Below, one piece after another: positions 15,476 to 33,839 of a stretch of 37,681 nt of DNA. The notes under the pieces are model-generated. The model worked only from the letters and a program-made list of their open reading frames with translations, did no database searches and was not told the origin of the DNA. Source of the stretch: a virus (Duplodnaviria; Heunggongvirae; Uroviricota; Caudoviricetes). The stretch's first letter is position 1. Every line of letters starts with the position of its first letter. Position numbers and translations under genes: made by a program. The stretch is from the IMG/VR virus record IMGVR_UViG_2541047945_000005. One strand, written 5' to 3'.

Positions 15476-16606
15476 TTACAGGCAGCGTGCGACAGCAGCC
15501 TCATAGCTGATGCCTTCTTTTTTGGACAGGGCCACTGCTTTCTGATGCAGGGCCAGACGCTCAGGATCGGCTTCCGCAAACTCTGCCACATCCACCTTCA
15601 CCGTGTCGCCGACACGCTCTTTTGTGGCCTGTTCGGCGAAATTCATCACCGGCTCCCCGTCGGAGAGCAATGAACGAAAGGCGGTGGCCAGCGGTGTGCG
15701 GCTTTCCCCCTCAGCAAACTCCACCGGCTTGTCGCCACCGGCGACGGCATCCAGCAGGGCAACCACCACGGAGGAGGCGCGGGGAGCCAGACGGCCCTCT
15801 GCGACCAGTTTTTCTGCAAAGGCCACATTGTCCTTATGCAGTTGCTCCTGTCTGACCTGTGCATCACGCGCATCGCGATCAGCAGCCTGCTGCTTCAGGC
15901 GGCGGTTCTCCTCCTGAAGGGTTTCAATCTCTTCTTTTGTCATCGATGATTCCTCGTTACTTGCGGAAGACGGCCCCGGGCCTGTCTCACTGAATTGTGC
16001 ACCTGCTGCATCCTGCGACAGTGTGTCGCGGTACGCCTCTTCGCGCAGACTGTTGAGCTGCCATTCCGGCAGGACTTTTTCTGCCTCGTCCAGACTGAAG
16101 CGGGCGATCAGAAAATCGCGCAGCTTTCCCCACAGGGAGGCATTCGTGATGGCCTGCCAGTCGGCGAACTCCACCACACCTTCTTCCTGCTCACTGAAGG
16201 ACACCTGTTTCAGCCCCTTGATGGAAGGTGGCTGTGCCCCGAGAAAGCCCACATGGCGAAGGTAGAGCACGCCGGGCTTCGGATTGGACGGTGAATCCGG
16301 GAGGTAGAAAGAGGCGGACACTTTTTTGAATCGTCCGTCGGTGACCATCTCAGCAAACTGCGGGTCCAGCTGGGCAGGCTCTGCCATCAGATCGACGCCG
16401 CTGAGCGACAGGGCTTTCACCCAGCCCCACGCCGGGTCTTCCGTTCTGGGATGACCAATCACGAGTGGTGCTTCATGGACGGACGGGTCATAGGCTTTCA
16501 CGCAGGCGGCAAGATCGTCTGGCGTGAACGGCAGTTTTTTGCCGTGCATATCGGTATGAGTACCGGCTTTAAAAGTAAGCGTAAACTGACCGCCGTATGT
16601 AGCCAT
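15476..16606 (-). CDS. head protease/scaffold protein (Mu I-like); native 5' end separated by the IS66 insertion, current start codon lies inside the IS inverted repeat
   Basis: 376-aa ORF with coiled-coil C-terminal half; first 11 codons (MATYGGQFTLT) are IS sequence; native ATG at 19131 is in frame once the IS and one duplication copy are removed. Confidence 0.65.
   Translation of the reverse strand: MATYGGQFTLTFKAGTHTDMHGKKLPFTPDDLAACVKAYDPSVHEAPLVIGHPRTEDPAWGWVKALSLSGVDLMAEPAQLDPQFAEMVTDGRFKKVSASFYLPDSPSNPKPGVLYLRHVGFLGAQPPSIKGLKQVSFSEQEEGVVEFADWQAITNASLWGKLRDFLIARFSLDEAEKVLPEWQLNSLREEAYRDTLSQDAAGAQFSETGPGPSSASNEESSMTKEEIETLQEENRRLKQQAADRDARDAQVRQEQLHKDNVAFAEKLVAEGRLAPRASSVVVALLDAVAGGDKPVEFAEGESRTPLATAFRSLLSDGEPVMNFAEQATKERVGDTVKVDVAEFAEADPERLALHQKAVALSKKEGISYEAAVARCL
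16567..16574. repeat. 8-bp target-site duplication (left copy) CTTTAAAA
   Basis: Identical to 19107-19114, directly flanking the IS termini. Confidence 0.85.
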
Positions 16607-16659
16607 CAGACGAGAATTGGTAACTTAGACGCCCATCTGATATAGACGGACATCTAAGT

Positions 16660-17085
16660 ATGGAATTACAGGACTGGCGAAAAGAACCTCGTAAAAACTA
16701 TTCGAATGAATTCAAACTTCGTATGGTGGAACTGGCATCACAACCTGGAGCTTGTGTTGCACAGATTGCACGTGAAAATGGCGTCAATGATAATGTTATT
16801 TTCAAATGGCTCAGGCTCTGGCAGAACGAAGGGCGTGTTTCGCGGCGTCTTCCGGTAACGACCTCTTCTGACACTGGCGTTGAATTATTACCTGTAGAAA
16901 TAACGCCGGATGAGCAGAAAGAACCTGTGGCGGCCATTGCGCCGTCTTTATCCACTTCCACTCAGACCAGAGTCAGTGCCAGTTCCTGCAAGGTGGAATT
17001 CCGTCACGGTAACATGACGCTGGAAAATCCATCGCCAGAGCTGCTCACAGTGTTGATCCGTGAACTGACCGGGAGGGGAAGATGA
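16660..17085 (+). CDS. tnpA: IS66 accessory protein TnpA (orf1)
   Basis: 141 aa, first ORF of the IS66 triad. Confidence 0.8.
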   Translation: MELQDWRKEPRKNYSNEFKLRMVELASQPGACVAQIARENGVNDNVIFKWLRLWQNEGRVSRRLPVTTSSDTGVELLPVEITPDEQKEPVAAIAPSLSTSTQTRVSASSCKVEFRHGNMTLENPSPELLTVLIRELTGRGR

Positions 17086-17432
17086 TCTCACTCCCATCAG
17101 GTACCCGTATCTGGCTCGTTGCCGGCGTTACCGATATGCGTAAATCCTTCAACGGACTGGGAGAACAGGTACAACATGTGCTGAATGATAATCCCTTCTC
17201 CGGTCACCTGTTTATCTTCCGTGGCCGACGGGGTGACACCGTCAAAATTCTTTGGGCTGATGCTGATGGTCTGTGCCTGTTCACCAAACGCCTGGAGGAA
17301 GGCCAGTTTATCTGGCCTGCGGTACGTGACGGCAAGGTATCCATTACCCGCTCGCAACTGGCAATGCTCCTCGATAAGCTGGACTGGCGTCAGCCAAAAA
17401 CATCCAGCCGTAACTCACTGACAATGTTGTAA
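17082..17432 (+). CDS. tnpB: IS66 TnpB (orf2)
   Basis: 116 aa, ATGA overlap with tnpA. Confidence 0.8.
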   Translation: MISLPSGTRIWLVAGVTDMRKSFNGLGEQVQHVLNDNPFSGHLFIFRGRRGDTVKILWADADGLCLFTKRLEEGQFIWPAVRDGKVSITRSQLAMLLDKLDWRQPKTSSRNSLTML

Positions 17433-17462
17433 AAAACTCCTGACCGCATTATAAAAACGGTC

Positions 17463-19076
17463 ATGAGTCAGAAATACCTCATTCGCATCGCAGAGCTGGA
17501 AAGGTTGCTCTCTGAGCAGGCTGAAGCCCTCCGTCAGAAAGACCAGCAACTGAGTCTGGTTGAAGAGACGGAAGCCTTCCTGCGCTCTGCACTGACACGT
17601 GCCGAAGAAAAGATCGAAGAAGATGAACGGGAAATAGAACATCTGCGGGCTCAGATAGAAAAACTGCGCCGGATGCTGTTCGGTACCCGTTCTGAAAAAC
17701 TGCGTCGTGAAGTTGAACTGGCTGAGGCTCTGCTGAAACAACGTGAACAGGACAGCGATCGTTACAGTGGGCGGGAAGACGATCCTCAGGTTCCCCGCCA
17801 GTTGCGACAGTCGCGCCATCGTCGTCCGTTACCGGCACACCTTCCCCGTGAAATACACCGCCTGGAGCCAGAAGAAAGCTGTTGCCCGGAGTGTGGCGGT
17901 GAGCTGGATTATCTGGGGGAAGTCAGCGCTGAACAGCTGGAACTGGTGAGCAGTGCCCTGAAAGTGATCCGCACAGAACGGGTAAAAAAAGCCTGTACAA
18001 AATGTGACTGTATTGTTGAAGCACCGGCGCCGTCCCGCCCGATAGAGCGTGGTATCGCGGGCCCCGGATTACTTGCCCGCGTGTTAACGGGAAAATACTG
18101 CGAACATCTGCCACTGTATCGTCAGAGTGAAATCTTTGCCCGCCAGGGTGTCGAACTGAGCCGGGCCTTACTCTCCAACTGGGTTGACGCGTGCTGCCAG
18201 TTAATGACACCGGTGAATGATGCCCTGTACCGTTATGTAATGAACACCCGCAAGGTTCACACTGATGACACACCGGTAAAGGTACTGGCACCGGGTCAGA
18301 AAAAGGCGAAAACAGGGCGTATCTGGACGTATGTCCGGGATGATCGCAATGTGGGTTCGTCATCTCCTCCAGCGGTCTGGTTCGCGTACTCGCCGAACCG
18401 GCAGGGGAAACACCCGGAGCAACACCTCCGCCCCTTCCGGGGTATCCTGCAGGCGGATGCGTTCACAGGTTACGACAGGTTGTTCAGTGCAGAACGTGAA
18501 GGTGGTGCACTGACAGAAGTTGCGTGCTGGGCCCATGCCCGGCGAAAAATCCACGATGTATACATCAGCAGCAAAAGTGCGACGGCAGAAGAAGCCCTGA
18601 AGCGAATCAGTGAACTGTACGCCATCGAGGATGAAATACGGGGATTACCGGAGTCAGAGCGTCTTGCCGTCAGGCAGCAGCGAAGCAAAGTGTTACTGAC
18701 GTCGCTGCATGAATGGATGGTGGAGAAGAATGGTACGCTGTCGAAAAAATCCAGACTGGGCGAAGCGTTCAGCTATGTACTGAATCAGTGGGATGCCCTC
18801 TGTTATTACAGTGATGACGGTCTGGCGGAGGCGGATAATAATGCTGCGGAAAGAGCGCTTCGTGCAGTCTGTCTCGGAAAGAAAAACTTTATGTTCTTTG
18901 GCAGCGATCACGGCGGCGAGCGTGGAGCACTGTTGTACGGGCTGATCGGCACCTGCCGTCTGAACGGTATCGATCCGGAAGCGTATCTGCGCCATATCCT
19001 GAGCGTACTGCCGGAATGGCCTTCCAACCGAGTTGACGAACTCCTGCCATGGAACGTAGTACTCACCAATAAATAA
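17463..19076 (+). CDS. tnpC: IS66 transposase TnpC (orf3)
   Basis: 537 aa; N-terminal coiled coil, CxxC...CxxC zinc motif. Confidence 0.85.
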   Translation: MSQKYLIRIAELERLLSEQAEALRQKDQQLSLVEETEAFLRSALTRAEEKIEEDEREIEHLRAQIEKLRRMLFGTRSEKLRREVELAEALLKQREQDSDRYSGREDDPQVPRQLRQSRHRRPLPAHLPREIHRLEPEESCCPECGGELDYLGEVSAEQLELVSSALKVIRTERVKKACTKCDCIVEAPAPSRPIERGIAGPGLLARVLTGKYCEHLPLYRQSEIFARQGVELSRALLSNWVDACCQLMTPVNDALYRYVMNTRKVHTDDTPVKVLAPGQKKAKTGRIWTYVRDDRNVGSSSPPAVWFAYSPNRQGKHPEQHLRPFRGILQADAFTGYDRLFSAEREGGALTEVACWAHARRKIHDVYISSKSATAEEALKRISELYAIEDEIRGLPESERLAVRQQRSKVLLTSLHEWMVEKNGTLSKKSRLGEAFSYVLNQWDALCYYSDDGLAEADNNAAERALRAVCLGKKNFMFFGSDHGGERGALLYGLIGTCRLNGIDPEAYLRHILSVLPEWPSNRVDELLPWNVVLTNK

Positions 19077-19106
19077 GCGTCAATACGGTGCTCCGTTGAC
19101 GCTTAC

Positions 19107-27919: not shown

Positions 27920-28906
27920 CTATTTAAGAATAAAACGGTATTTACTGTCAGGAGTGCTTTGCTGATCAAGTAGCAGTGAACGACATGGAGCAGTCAAAAC
28001 CCGAGCATAACTACCATCAGGGCTTATGTTAATGTAACAAACCTTGCCCTTAACACTATAATTTTCGGGGACGGATGCCTTTGCTGATACAGTAAATTTA
28101 AGGGTATGCCAGCCCGTTTTTTGCTTGTAGCTTGAAACCGAATGGAAATCATCTGAGTACTTATTTAACCCTGGAAACATGCTGCGCAGTGCGGGGATGG
28201 AATCTTCTATTATTTTATCGTTGGTTTTAATGTTAAAAACGCTGGTTTCAGTAGAAGCTACTGCTTTGGCATTTCCCCATTTACCAGCGAACACAATCAT
28301 TCCCACGAAAAATATTGCTACAAGAACTAACACTCCCCCCAACACTACTACATGAGGCTTCCGGCTTCTGGTTGGTACAGTTGCGACTGATTTTGCACCG
28401 CTTTCCGATGGAGGTGATAGAGTTTTACTCTCATCACGAATATTCAGCAGATCATCAAAATAACCAAACACAGCCTGCAACTGCTCTTTGTCTAGGCCTT
28501 TAAGATGGGTTGTACCGAAATGCTTCAGACAGTATCTGTCACGGTCAAGACGATACCCAGGGTCAGTAAGCGCCATTATTTTGCTGACCAGAAGATTACA
28601 GTCCTTCATATTCTGGATCTGTTGTGCATATCTCTGAAGGATCTCAACCGCACCATGATAATCAGCCGCAGTCATTTCATTAACTGTTTTGGTATTAAGT
28701 TTCGTGTGGATCGTCATCCATAGCTCGCGCTTACTTTCCCCCAGATCAACCAATTCATCCATCAATCTGTGTAAATCGCGTTTTTGCAGCAACGAAATTG
28801 GTTGCTGGGCCGAAGGAAGTATGTCAGCAGAATAGTTATGAATGGTAACATCACCGCTGACAACGTTACCCACATCCCCGTTAACTGTTTGCTTCTCTTT
28901 ACTCAT
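27920..28906 (-). CDS. single-pass membrane protein translationally coupled to the repressor, unknown function
   Basis: 328 aa; one TM helix at about residues 176-198; ATGA overlap with the repressor stop; AT-rich. Confidence 0.65.
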   Translation of the reverse strand: MSKEKQTVNGDVGNVVSGDVTIHNYSADILPSAQQPISLLQKRDLHRLMDELVDLGESKRELWMTIHTKLNTKTVNEMTAADYHGAVEILQRYAQQIQNMKDCNLLVSKIMALTDPGYRLDRDRYCLKHFGTTHLKGLDKEQLQAVFGYFDDLLNIRDESKTLSPPSESGAKSVATVPTRSRKPHVVVLGGVLVLVAIFFVGMIVFAGKWGNAKAVASTETSVFNIKTNDKIIEDSIPALRSMFPGLNKYSDDFHSVSSYKQKTGWHTLKFTVSAKASVPENYSVKGKVCYINISPDGSYARVLTAPCRSLLLDQQSTPDSKYRFILK

Positions 28907-29364
28907 CTTCTCTTGGTATTTTTGTTCATTATTCCACCTGTTCCTATGGTTACGTTACCTTTGATAACATTCCCCAGAACATCTCCATGAATAACCTGTT
29001 CCGCCCGTTCTCTGGAGGAGCCAGTAGTCAAGGCCGACAAAACTGAACCTTTGACCTGTAATGGTGCCTGCCGGTAGTGCTGCAGTAACTCCATTTCATC
29101 ACGTGATAAAGTTATACCTGATGACTCCCCGGTAAGAATGAACTGTACATTGGCCCCAATTCTTGCAAAGGCTGCAAGTAACTCACCTCCGGGAACAGCA
29201 ACCCCTCGTTCATATTTCCCCCACATTTCTCTTGAAACGCCACAAAGGGCTGCTACTTCAGCCTGCTTGAGTGATAACCGCGAACGCTCAGCTTTGAACC
29301 GCGACGCGCAAAGAGAATCAAAATTCACATAAACCTCATTGACAATGAGAACAATAGTTCTCAT
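28903..29364 (-). CDS. CI-type (XRE-family HTH) prophage repressor
   Basis: HTH LSLKQAEVAALCGVSREMWGKYERG; divergent from the early operon; no LexA-like peptidase motif seen; alternative GTG start at 29328 with GAGG. Confidence 0.7.
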   Translation of the reverse strand: MRTIVLIVNEVYVNFDSLCASRFKAERSRLSLKQAEVAALCGVSREMWGKYERGVAVPGGELLAAFARIGANVQFILTGESSGITLSRDEMELLQHYRQAPLQVKGSVLSALTTGSSRERAEQVIHGDVLGNVIKGNVTIGTGGIMNKNTKRR

Positions 29365-29367
29365 AAT
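29339..29367 (+). promoter_or_regulatory. candidate early promoter (TTGACA-17-CATAAT) for the Cro-like/transposase operon
   Basis: Sigma70-like hexamers with 17-bp spacer about 45 nt upstream of the Cro-like ATG. Confidence 0.55.
29347..29362. promoter_or_regulatory. palindromic candidate operator GAGAACAATAGTTCTC
   Basis: Perfect 6-bp inverted repeat with 4-bp spacer inside the early promoter spacer. Confidence 0.5.
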
Positions 29368-29374
29368 CTATCAC

Positions 29375-29403
29375 ATATAAAACAAACATCATTGCATCAA
29401 CAA
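29375..29403 (-). promoter_or_regulatory. candidate repressor maintenance promoter (TTGTTG-17-TTATAT), near-leaderless
   Basis: Hexamers on the minus strand; predicted start 2-4 nt before the ATG at 29364. Confidence 0.4.
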
Positions 29404-29414
29404 AGGAGACAACA

Positions 29415-29603
29415 ATGACTTCCGAACAAGTTAAAAATCTCTTCCGTCAGCGTGGTATCACGTTTACCCGCTGGGCCGAAGAACACGGCTACAGCCGCAA
29501 TGAGGTCTATCGTGTTCTCAATGGACAGACCAAAGCTCGTTACGGCAAAGCCCATGAAATTGCCGTAAAACTGGGATTAAAACCCACGTCAAATGCGGCA
29601 TAA
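29415..29603 (+). CDS. small DNA-binding regulator (Cro/Ner functional analogue)
   Basis: 62 aa, first gene of the early operon, AAGGAG 6 nt upstream. Confidence 0.6.
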   Translation: MTSEQVKNLFRQRGITFTRWAEEHGYSRNEVYRVLNGQTKARYGKAHEIAVKLGLKPTSNAA

Positions 29604-29655
29604 ATTTTCCACATATGCAACAGGTTATCACATATTGCAAAAATGGAAATGTGAC

Positions 29656-30892: not shown

Positions 30893-32662
30893 ATGAATGC
30901 TGCCCTGACTGAACGACTGGTTTATGTCGCCCGCGCGGCACGTGACGCGGGGCATGGTAAACGCGGTGCAATATACGACGCTGCCTGTGCTGAACTTGGC
31001 ATGTCCCGCGCCACTCTGCTGCGCAGGCTGAAGGAGGTCTCTGTGACTGATAAACGCAAAAAACGCGCTGATGCCGGACGCAGCGCCCTGACCCGCGACG
31101 AAGCCGCGCTGATATCTGCCACACTGCGTGAGGCCACCCGCAAGAACGGTAAACGCCTCTATTCCATCGCAGATGCAGTGGAAACCCTGCGGGCTAACGG
31201 CTTTATCACCGCAGGCAGAACAGATGAAACCACCGGTGAGTTTTTCCCGTTGTCTGAAGATGCCATCAGCCGTGCTCTGCGTAACTATGGCCTGCACCCG
31301 GAACAACTGGATGCTCCTGCACCGCATACCGAAGTGGCCAGTCTGCACCCCAATCATGTCTGGCAGATTGACGCCTCACTCTGCACGCTTTACTACCTGA
31401 GCAATGGACATAAAGGGCTGCAGGTGATGGACAGCGCGAAGTTCTACAAGAACAAGCCCGCTAACCTTGCCCGTATCGCCAGTGACCGCGTGTGGAGTTA
31501 CGAGATTACCGACCATGCCAGCGGCTGGATTTACGTTGAGTATGTGACGGGCGCGGAATCAGGTGAGAACCTGTGTTCTGTGCTTATCAACGCCATGCAG
31601 GAGCGTGGCGGCGCAGACGTGCTGCACGGCGTGCCAAAAATACTCTATCTCGACCCCGGCTCGGCAAACACCGCGGGTATGACGAAAAACATGTGCCGCT
31701 CACTGGGCATCGACCTGATAGCGCACAAGCCGCATAACGCCCGCGCCACCGGACAGGTGGAAAAGGCGCGGGACATTATCGAACGCAAGCTGGAGCCGGG
31801 TCTGAAGTTCCGGCCGGTTCACAGTCTGGAAGAACTCAATGCGCTGGCCGCGAAATGGCGCAGCCACTTTAACGCCACGGCTGTTCACAGCCGCCACGGT
31901 AAAACCCGCACGGATATCTGGCTGAAGATTACTGCTGAGCAGCTGAAAAAAGCGCCTTCCGTTGAGGTATGTCGTGAACTGGCTGTGGCGGCACCAGAAC
32001 TCCGCAAAGTCACGCCAAAACTTCGTGTCTCGTTCCGGGGCACTGAATTTGACGTATCAACGGTACCGGGCGTACTGGTCGGTGAAAAACTGATGATTAC
32101 CCGTAACCCGTGGCGCAGCGATGTGGCACAGGTGGTTCTGACCGGTGAGGACGGCCACGAGACGTTCTTCCTGGTCGAAGAAGTCAGAAAGAACGAGTTT
32201 GGCTTTGCTGAAGGCGCGGCGGTATTTGGCGAAAGTTACAAAGCCCTGCCGGAAACCCCGGCGCAGATGGCGGCAAAAGAAACCGAAGCGCTGGTCACCG
32301 GTACAGACAACGCCGCAGATGCAGCTGCCGCACGCAAGGCGAAGGCGCTGCCGTTCGGCGGGCGGCTTGACCCATATAAACATATTGATGACGCCACACT
32401 TCCGGCCTATATGCCGAAGCGAGGTCAGGCCTCTGACGTACGCGGGCCGCGCACTGAACAACGTCCCATGACTCATGTGGAGGCCGCGAAAGCCCTGCGC
32501 GATAAGTTCAGCGCCGACGGCCTTACCTGGACGCCGGAACATTACCGCCAGTTAACGGCACAGTATCCGGACGGCGTACCGGAAGCCGCACTGGATGAAG
32601 TCATGGCCACGCTGACCACGCCGGCCCGCAGCAGCGTTATCAGCATTGTTAACGGCAACTGA
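30893..32662 (+). CDS. DDE transposase (Mu A-like, integrase-core fold)
   Basis: N-terminal HTH, WQIDAS ... YLDPGS ... QVEKA candidate DDE triad; followed by an AAA+ partner. Confidence 0.75.
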   Translation: MNAALTERLVYVARAARDAGHGKRGAIYDAACAELGMSRATLLRRLKEVSVTDKRKKRADAGRSALTRDEAALISATLREATRKNGKRLYSIADAVETLRANGFITAGRTDETTGEFFPLSEDAISRALRNYGLHPEQLDAPAPHTEVASLHPNHVWQIDASLCTLYYLSNGHKGLQVMDSAKFYKNKPANLARIASDRVWSYEITDHASGWIYVEYVTGAESGENLCSVLINAMQERGGADVLHGVPKILYLDPGSANTAGMTKNMCRSLGIDLIAHKPHNARATGQVEKARDIIERKLEPGLKFRPVHSLEELNALAAKWRSHFNATAVHSRHGKTRTDIWLKITAEQLKKAPSVEVCRELAVAAPELRKVTPKLRVSFRGTEFDVSTVPGVLVGEKLMITRNPWRSDVAQVVLTGEDGHETFFLVEEVRKNEFGFAEGAAVFGESYKALPETPAQMAAKETEALVTGTDNAADAAAARKAKALPFGGRLDPYKHIDDATLPAYMPKRGQASDVRGPRTEQRPMTHVEAAKALRDKFSADGLTWTPEHYRQLTAQYPDGVPEAALDEVMATLTTPARSSVISIVNGN

Positions 32663-32672
32663 GGAGGGATAC

Positions 32673-33839
32673 ATGCTGGTACTGAAGCAGCAACTGAAAG
32701 AGGCCCGTATTCCACAGGCGGTGGTGGCGAGAGCTGTCGATGTTTCTGAGGCCACGCTGGCCCAGATTGTGAATCATAACGCGTGGCCCCGCACCAGCCC
32801 CGGAGAAGTGCGCCGGCGTCTTGCGTCCTGGCTGGAAAGTCAGGGGATTGATACAACGAAGAGTTTTGATGCTGTACAGGGCGCGGCCACGCCCCGTACA
32901 GCGGGTACCACAGATAAAACGAGCCTCAGTGAGGAAGAGAATATGTTACTCAAAAAACAGGTGTTATTTCCAGCAACCAAAAAAGCGTTTGGTCTTTTCC
33001 GTGACCCGTTCGCCGACGAAGCCATGCAGGGTTCTGATGATGTGTTCACCACTCCGGACATTCGCTACGTGCGTGAGGCGCTGTACCAGACAGCCCGTCA
33101 TGGTGGGTTTATGGCCGTCATCGGTGAGTCCGGTGCGGGTAAATCCACGCTGCGCCGTGACCTGACTGAACGTATCAACCGCGAGAATGCGCCGGTGATT
33201 GTTATCGAGCCATACATCATCGCTATGGAAGACAACGATGTGAAAGGGAAAACCCTGAAGGCAGCAGCGATTGCCGAAGCCATTATCAGTACCATCGCAC
33301 CACTGGAAAGCATCAGACGCAGTCAGGACGCCCGCTTTCGCCAGCTGCATCGCGTCCTGAAAGACAGCAGCCAGGCGGGGTTCAGCCACGTTCTGGTGAT
33401 TGAGGAGGCCCACAGTCTGCCCATTCCGACACTGAAACACCTCAAACGCTTTTTTGAGCTGGAGTCCGGTTTCAAAAAACTGCTGTCCATCGTGCTGATT
33501 GGCCAGCCGGAACTGGCGACAAAACTGTCTGAACGCAATATGGAAGTCCGTGAAGTCGTTCAGCGCTGTGAGGTGGTCGAACTTCTGCCTCTGGACAATA
33601 ACCTTGAAGAGTTTCTGACGTTCAAACTGCAACGGGCCGGTAAACAACTGACGGACATTATGGACGCCAGCGCAGTGGATGCCATACGTGCCCGCCTGAG
33701 CAATCCGGGAAGTCATCGTAAAAATATGGTCAGCCTGCTGTATCCGCTGGCCGTCAGTAACCTGGTAATAGCCGCCATGAATCTGGCCGCTGAAATCGGG
33801 GTTCCACAGGTCAACGCTGACGTTGTCAAAGGGGTTTAA
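32673..33839 (+). CDS. transposition ATPase (Mu B-like AAA+)
   Basis: Walker A GESGAGKST, Walker B VLVIEEAH; GGAGGG RBS; ORF track starts at a TTG at 32646. Confidence 0.75.
   Translation: MLVLKQQLKEARIPQAVVARAVDVSEATLAQIVNHNAWPRTSPGEVRRRLASWLESQGIDTTKSFDAVQGAATPRTAGTTDKTSLSEEENMLLKKQVLFPATKKAFGLFRDPFADEAMQGSDDVFTTPDIRYVREALYQTARHGGFMAVIGESGAGKSTLRRDLTERINRENAPVIVIEPYIIAMEDNDVKGKTLKAAAIAEAIISTIAPLESIRRSQDARFRQLHRVLKDSSQAGFSHVLVIEEAHSLPIPTLKHLKRFFELESGFKKLLSIVLIGQPELATKLSERNMEVREVVQRCEVVELLPLDNNLEEFLTFKLQRAGKQLTDIMDASAVDAIRARLSNPGSHRKNMVSLLYPLAVSNLVIAAMNLAAEIGVPQVNADVVKGV

Follow-up and report, generated by a model that had tools for sequence, protein, structure and literature searches.

The window analysed here, the 37,681-nucleotide (nt) IMG/VR virus record IMGVR_UViG_2541047945_000005, is a BcepMu/B3-type transposable prophage of Escherichia coli (E. 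coli). We find that an 86-bp interval between two divergent regulator genes (29329-29414) is probably its immunity control region, in which a dyad located in the spacer of the early promoter (Pe) would be bound by the prophage repressor and thereby occlude Pe. An XRE-type helix-turn-helix (HTH) gene on the minus strand, which encodes the repressor, borders the interval on its left. On the plus strand to the right follow, in order, a gene for a 62-amino-acid (aa) HTH protein of the gp16 family, termed Ner-like in B3-type Pseudomonas phages (PMC9936078), an IclR-type gene, a DUF3102 gene, a transposase and an ATPase. An earlier annotation made from the nucleotide sequence alone (henceforth termed the sequence-only reading) had assigned the interval to the control of a transposable phage, which agrees with the divergent repressor and Cro/Ner-like genes at the head of a transposase operon.

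Pe, proposed by the sequence-only reading as a rightward TTGACA-17-CATAAT promoter, is present as claimed. It is the sole sigma-70 match of at least 11/12 on both strands of the 37.7-kb window, where shuffled sequences give 0.23. For comparison, 80 gp16-family loci were fetched from Enterobacterales, Pseudomonas, Xanthomonadales and Betaproteobacteria, and ~90 related loci were compared. A Pe-like -35/-10 pair occurs in 70 of 83 gp16-family loci, mostly with the -10 hexamer 44-49 nt before the ner-like ATG, and the positions of the -35, the -10 and a leader of 45-50 nt are kept across the ~90 loci. The same layout of -35, spacer, -10 and leader is also found in phage B3. From this near-consensus promoter, transcription is predicted to start at ~29373-29375 and would drive the early operon, i.e., the ner-like gp16 gene, the IclR-type regulator, the DUF3102 gene, the DDE transposase and the MuB-like ATPase.

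The Pe spacer carries the inverted repeat ATGAGAAC-AATA-GTTCTCAT (Table 1). A perfect palindrome, GAGAACAATAGTTCTC, had been reported at this position; the inverted repeat is real, but the centre AATA of this 16-mer (29347-29362) is not self-complementary (7/8 pairs), and the true symmetry is an 8+4+8 arrangement at 29345-29364. None of 300 spacer shuffles matched the repeat, and ATGAGAAC has no second occurrence in the window. Among related loci, 55 distinct spacers were tested, and 33 of them hold an inverted repeat reached by at most 5% of their own shuffles. When the same test was applied to neighbouring DNA, two segments of the leader scored 0/48 and 0/35, and one lying upstream of the -35 scored 4/54. 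By inspection, more than 20 different palindromes occupy the same promoter position across loci, including TGTGATCTATAGATCACA, GGTAGATAATTATCTACC, TATACAC-GTTT-GTGTATA, GTCCCAT-TT-ATGGGAC and GGTATAAA-TT-TTTATACC.

The identity of the spacer dyad follows that of the repressor. In E. coli relatives, homology to the window sets in precisely at 29363, inside the -10 hexamer, and leftward of this point they carry another repressor gene (encoding a 118-aa HTH protein, an 'AlpA-like' protein or others) together with another palindrome, such as TGCTCATAATTATGAGCA, TGTCTAA-TTTT-TTAGACA or the weaker GGTGAGGTAATCTGCACC. The -35 TTG, the -10 ATAAT and a nearly invariant leader are all kept in these aligned sequences. 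Repressors were compared by their HTH domains; whole-protein BLAST clustering was dropped because it chained unrelated HTH domains via shared C-terminal domains. HTH identity and spacer identity correlate with r = 0.73 (Mantel), a value reached by 0 of 2000 permutations, with a mean spacer identity of 0.79-0.92 at HTH identities above 60% and of ~0.3 at those below 40%. The 20 loci with a window-type repressor (14 distinct sequences) come from eight genera (E. coli, Salmonella, Pectobacterium, Dickeya, Brenneria, Lonsdalea, Serratia and Pseudomonas). In all of them GAGAA[CT]-N4-GTTC[TA]CA is invariant and only the four central nucleotides vary (AATA, TAAA, TTTA, CAAA, TAGA, TTAA, TTTG, TATA), and some of the repressors with these invariant arms share only 57-64% identity with that of the window.

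Several observations weigh against reading this dyad as the repressor operator. The repressor gene adjoins the spacer, so that co-inheritance accounts for part of the covariation; several repressor types display weak symmetry only in our test (e.g., GGTG-N9/10-CACC, L004 and L027); a single operator was found, with no cooperative or looping control detected; and the RefSeq repressor start, ATG 29364, places the palindrome inside the coding sequence. Co-inheritance by adjacency is, however, insufficient, because the arms are invariant around a variable centre at ~60% protein identity. Since the dyad overlaps the core promoter, tracks the repressor HTH and combines invariant arms with a variable centre within a repressor type, we infer that the repressor operator lies at 29345-29364 and would occlude Pe when occupied. 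The sequence-only reading had likewise called the spacer palindrome an operator, and across the ~90 loci it behaves as one. The repressor most likely binds this site as a dimer. Located between the -35 and the -10 and overlapping the latter, the bound repressor would deny RNA polymerase access to Pe, which would maintain lysogeny and set immunity specificity. The operators of P22 c2 and 434 are dyads with uncontacted central bases; by analogy, the four central bases of the operator in the window are probably not contacted either.

A search for further operator copies at up to three mismatches returned a sole other match in the window, in the transposase gene. The near-operator located there, TGAGAACCTGTGTTCTGT at 31564, is identical in EC11, which has a different repressor, and is within chance expectation. 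A candidate second operator in the ner-like gene, CAATGAG-N12-CTCAATG (29498-29523), was rejected as well: it represents codons of the conserved NEVYRVLNG motif, occurs equally in prophages with other repressors and is missing from several window-type loci. A second palindrome, CTCATTG-A-CAATGAG (29335-29349), is centred on the -35 hexamer and has ATGAG in common with the operator. Its conservation is only partial, with same-type enteric relatives keeping only CATTGACAATG and same-type Pseudomonas loci lacking it, and we did not retain it as a conserved element.

Two observations concern the repressor-operator cassette in other settings. In a Salmonella enterica locus (L009, ~1440-1560), the same repressor type occurs with the same -35, operator and -10 next to a divergent neighbour that is not gp16/Ner-like, and homology likewise ends just after CATAAT. 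This arrangement suggests that the cassette is also used outside the B3/BcepMu phage family. In some alternative cassettes (L003/L006/L001, E. coli, PhiKM, ~720-1490), a DNA adenine methylase adjoins the repressor, and the operator type TGTGATCTATAGATCACA (L044) has two GATC sites inside.

Pfam assigns only HTH_31/HTH_3 to the repressor and detects no S24 (LexA-like) autocleavage domain in it. Among solved structures, its N-terminal domain comes closest to that of P22 c2 (E 9e-5) and to the 434 repressor. RefSeq annotates the repressor as a 153-aa protein (28903-29364; PGAP; e.g., WP_001259268.1) starting at ATG 29364, the codon from which the sequence-only reading had derived a leaderless transcript beginning 2-4 nt upstream. 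This ATG forms the outer edge of the right-hand operator arm. MNFDSL, corresponding to GTG 29328, is the N-terminus of most homologues (one of them with 89% identity), and a Salmonella relative has an ATG at the GTG position. A purine-rich Shine-Dalgarno sequence (GGGG, GGTG, GAGG or GGAG) is found in relatives at an equal distance from the start. Relatives from Pectobacterium and Dickeya that share this operator (L010 and L011) have a right arm reading GTTCACAT, so that the upstream ATG is directly followed by TGA. The same arm, and hence the stop, recurs in L026, L043 and L070-74, and in Pseudomonas loci (e.g., L045) the upstream ATG is out of frame. Because most homologues start with MNFDSL, a Shine-Dalgarno sequence precedes GTG 29328 and relatives have a stop or a different frame, the repressor very probably starts at GTG 29328, so that the 12 additional residues in RefSeq represent an annotation artefact caused by the operator. 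With this start and its GAGG, a leaderless transcript is unlikely. The counterpart repressor gene of EC11 is annotated such that it even reaches into the beginning of the ner-like gene.

If the RefSeq start were nonetheless right, the repeat could be conserved mainly as code for the N-terminal peptide MRTIVLIVNEVY. PGAP calls this start, and a similar extension exists in some homologues, e.g., MRTLILIVNGVF in P0005 and P0016. We regard this explanation as highly improbable: beyond the stops and frame differences that close the extension in same-operator relatives, variation sits in the four central nucleotides and not in third codon positions, and loci with other repressor types carry different palindromes at this promoter position. 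The repeat might alternatively act as RNA, folding into a hairpin within the 5' leader of the repressor transcript with a role in stability or attenuation and without any protein operator. It is necessarily part of any repressor transcript that begins right of 29364 and could fold into an 8-bp stem with a 4-nt loop, and both arms change together between types. Yet the position of the repeat is fixed relative to the rightward -35/-10 in 70 loci, its arms track the repressor HTH and are invariant within a type with no drift by compensatory changes, and its architecture fits operators of P22 c2/434-type proteins, all of which makes a hairpin barely credible.

The remaining alternatives turn on the 62-aa Ner-like protein, which matches NCBIfam TIGR04111 with 94 bits (cut-off 34) and has 308 homologues. 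gp16 proteins with 81-87% identity and the same leader occur in E. coli prophages whose repressors and operators are unrelated (the window, L003, L004 and L005); conversely, the same operator type is found with gp16 proteins that are only ~70% identical. Because gp16 is conserved across more than 20 repressor/operator specificities, it would not share the operator and should be unable to recognise a type-specific dyad. It is thus extremely unlikely that the palindrome is a site of gp16 for autoregulation of Pe: this small HTH protein is encoded directly downstream, but the palindrome follows the gene on the other, repressor side. A gp16 unable to read the dyad also rules out a shared-operator switch of the lambda type, and the Ner-like protein would instead have to act on the conserved leader DNA. 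The full model of the sequence-only reading, a lambda-like CI/Cro switch with both regulators on the palindrome and a leaderless repressor mRNA from TTGTTG-17-TTATAT, is accordingly very unlikely. Its hexamers do exist (29403-29398 and 29380-29375, minus strand) with the claimed 17-nt spacing, and ATG 29364, besides being the RefSeq start, opens a reading frame in E. coli, L008 and L009. As a promoter, however, the pair matches the consensus at 3/6 + 3/6 positions, no better than expected by chance (the 86-bp interval has 53 sites at or above 6/12 vs 45 +/- 7 in shuffles), and it was unreported by a promoter scan. Its -10 has no A at position 2 and reads TTATGT in most relatives. The CI/Cro analogy further fails on the single operator with no further copy nearby, on the missing S24 domain, on the start codon and on a Cro-like protein common to more than 20 specificities.

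The type-specific DNA between GTG 29328 and the conserved segment comprises only ~35 bp, so the repressor promoter(s) must lie in the conserved segment or further right. For proximal and distal (pC2/pC1-like) promoters we found only three weak candidates. The extended -10-like TGaTAGATT (29373-29365, minus strand) is invariant in most enteric relatives. A second extended -10-like sequence, TGcAATGAT (29396-29388, minus strand), has a possible -35 TTGTTG at 29415-29410 and coincides with ATCWTTGCATCA, the most conserved leader block family-wide in a profile of 58 distinct leaders. Conservation of this block is not explained by RNA structure, because the leader shows no Rfam family and no structure (z = -0.01). 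We consider the corresponding ATCATTGCATCA block a candidate proximal repressor promoter and/or Ner-like protein site. The third candidate, GTGATA-16-GAAAAT (29631-29604, leftward, 8/12), lies just beyond the ner-like gene and might correspond to pC1, the distal promoter of phage Fc02.

This last candidate includes one of two copies of a 10-mer, TATCACATAT. The sequence-only reading had noted a TCACATAT repeat in the interval. The element at 29371-29378 is present and overlaps the claimed leftward -10, but its sole partner inside the interval is TTCACATAA (29324-29332) in the repressor start-codon region, and the true second copy, that of TATCACATAT, lies outside. Around copy 1, AATCTA and TG are kept in most enteric relatives while the whole motif varies (TAACACACAT, TATCACGTAT, TGTCATGTAT or absent). 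Copy 2 is invariant in enteric relatives, as is TTATCACATAT upstream of the IclR-like gene. Binding of both copies by one protein finds no support, with changes in copy 1 unmatched in copy 2 among the enteric relatives. The stretch 29604-29655 also contains an imperfect 20-nt inverted repeat (TTTCCACATATGCAACAGGT / ACATATTGCAAAAATGGAAA, 75% complementary), of which relatives conserve only the TTATCACATAT...GGGGAATGTGAC part. A possible DnaA box, TTTTCCACA (29606-29614), fits the relaxed consensus and was rejected as it is not conserved in relatives; inspection by eye gave no IHF consensus.

Table 1. Coordinates of genes and of predicted control elements in and around the interval.
Feature	Position	Strand	Remarks
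Predicted repressor operator, inverted repeat (8+4+8)	29345..29364	.	fills Pe spacer, overlaps first 3 nt of -10
Early promoter Pe	29339..29367	+	-35 TTGACA 29339-29344, 17-nt spacer, -10 CATAAT 29362-29367; 11/12 sigma-70 match
XRE-type HTH gene, open reading frame	28903-29364	-	left of interval
Prophage repressor gene, 141 aa from GTG 29328 (very probable start)	28903..29328	-	N-terminal XRE/P22-c2-like HTH; C-terminal domain ~70 aa
Repressor Shine-Dalgarno GAGG	29334..29337	-	5 nt before GTG 29328; read from sequence
TATCACATAT copy 1	29369..29378	+	over predicted Pe start; minus strand reads TGTGATA and with next bases forms TGaTAGATT
ATCATTGCATCA block	29388..29399	.	most conserved leader block in all relatives whatever repressor type; minus strand TGcAATGAT
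Ner-like gene Shine-Dalgarno AGGAG	29404..29408	+	GGAG conserved in leader alignment
Ner/Cro-like HTH protein, 62 aa, BcepMu gp16 family	29415..29603	+	first early-operon gene; TIGR04111, PHROG 925
TATCACATAT copy 2	29626..29635	+	between ner-like and IclR-type genes; exact 10-mer, only other copy in window
IclR/MarR-type winged-helix regulator, 102 aa	29656..29964	+	second early gene; Pfam HTH_IclR; PHROG 1368
rve-type (DDE) transposase	30893-32662	+	
AAA ATPase, MuB-like	32646-33839	+	

The prophage is widespread. Many E. coli strains have the 1.2 kb around the interval in their chromosomes at 100% identity, with copies at widely different map positions and up to three per genome. Matches with at least 80% query coverage occur in 127 of 5426 complete E. 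coli genomes and some match in 624, and related immunity variants were found in ~500 further E. coli genomes. A 25-kb virion-region query (window 1-25000) is 84% covered by Escherichia phage PhiKM (Bcepmuvirus) at 98.9% identity. Within the prophage, a 2.5-kb segment (16575-19106) shares 100% identity with segments labelled 'mobile element protein (x3)' in unrelated lambdoid phage records and looks like an insertion sequence element inserted into the structural-gene region. Downstream of the repressor, a 328-aa membrane protein (27920-28906, minus strand) has a start that overlaps the repressor stop (ATGA) and matches Flk_N, as do its counterparts in relatives. Its N-terminus (KEKQTVNGDVGNVVSGDVTI) resembles the C-terminal tail of the repressor (RAEQVIHGDVLGNVIKGNVTI, window 28903-29010) with 52% identity over 21 aa (E 3e-4). 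The same tail is attached to different HTH domains in other repressors.

The comparison across loci suggests a modular design for the B3/BcepMu family, with many repressor/dyad cassettes plugged into one promoter scaffold at the -10. Immunity specificity would reside in a compact cassette composed of the repressor and its Pe-spacer dyad, while the Ner-like arm would be universal. A bolder and rather doubtful extension holds that gp16 and the ~50-bp leader form an 'anti-repressor arm' common to more than 20 immunity specificities that also carries the repressor promoter(s), with cassettes exchanged at the -10 and gp16 acting in trans. If true, immunity cassettes would be swapped by recombination at the -10 hexamer, and the gp16 of a superinfecting heteroimmune relative could shut off repressor synthesis of the resident prophage, resulting in cross-induction or anti-immunity. 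The family would then represent a natural library of orthogonal repressor/operator pairs on one promoter scaffold. In practical terms, our analysis provides a testable map of the lysogeny switch for a prophage that, at a query coverage of 80% or more, was present in no fewer than 127 of the 5426 complete E. coli genomes and corrects the RefSeq start codon of its repressor. Potential uses include the prediction of superinfection immunity groups, the construction of inducible or virulent derivatives and orthogonal repressor-operator pairs. The general understanding of phage switches is unchanged.

The control region shares several features with lambdoid phages (lambda, 434 and P22 c2/cro): the type of HTH domain, a dyad operator with about four freely varying central bases and the exchange of immunity cassettes between otherwise similar phages. 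It differs in having a single operator (not a tandem set of three shared by repressor and Cro), a repressor that, according to Pfam, has no RecA-dependent S24 domain, and a Cro analogue that is encoded outside the immunity cassette and would be unable to share the operator; a leaderless repressor mRNA is also unsupported here. Phage Mu offers another point of comparison. In Mu, the repressor (c) blocks Pe, whereas Ner uses its own site and not the repressor operators. Three composite operators (O1-O3) as well as an IHF site are present in Mu. The winged-helix domain of its repressor (Rep) is MuA-like, and its Ner protein is from a different HTH family. Like Mu, the prophage in the window is transposable and has a repressor gene divergent from a small Ner-type gene that heads a transposase A/B operon. 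The proteins are, however, unrelated, as Pfam and NCBIfam assign an XRE-type HTH and BcepMu_gp16, neither of which is a Mu family, and a single dyad in the promoter spacer takes the place of O1-O3 and the IHF site. In its logic, the module resembles Mu c/ner more closely than lambda.

Closer counterparts are found within the family. The Ner-like protein of the window belongs to the same family (TIGR04111) as gp16 of the BcepMu gp17 (repressor)/gp16 pair. The E. coli Bcepmuvirus PhiKM has the early region in common with the window from 29363 rightwards and differs in its immunity cassette, which consists of a 118-aa repressor and the operator TGCTCATAATTATGAGCA. We found no published analysis of the BcepMu/PhiKM control region, and the accessible literature on B3- or BcepMu-like phages, which describes promoters, contained no description of their operators. 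For the B3-like phage Fc02, RNA-seq showed that pE fires upon inactivation of a temperature-sensitive repressor, and strand-specific data indicate that the repressor transcript of the lysogen originates mainly from a distal pC1 and runs antisense to the ner-like gene and its neighbour, with a proximal pC2 overlapping pE (PMC9936078). In the window, no counterpart of pC1 was identified. Virion genes set the element apart from B3 and Fc02, its virion module being BcepMu-like and of the myovirus type, and so do operator sequence and repressor specificity. Compared to B3, the E. coli element also lacks ORF16/ORF15 equivalents and has the IclR-type gene directly after the ner-like gene. The organisation of the control region is otherwise that of B3 and Fc02 (Beetrevirus; repc - pC2/pE - ner-like gene): an XRE/P22-c2-like repressor diverges from a gp16-family gene across a gap of ~86-106 bp, and DUF3102, transposase A and transposase B follow the ner-like gene. 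B3 also has the same Pe design, TTGACA-GGTGCAATATTTGGCACC-ACTATT followed by the conserved leader ...ATCTTTGCAT.ACAGGAGCC...ATG. The control module of the window is thus an ordinary repressor-controlled switch of the already known B3/BcepMu family and not a lambda-style switch.

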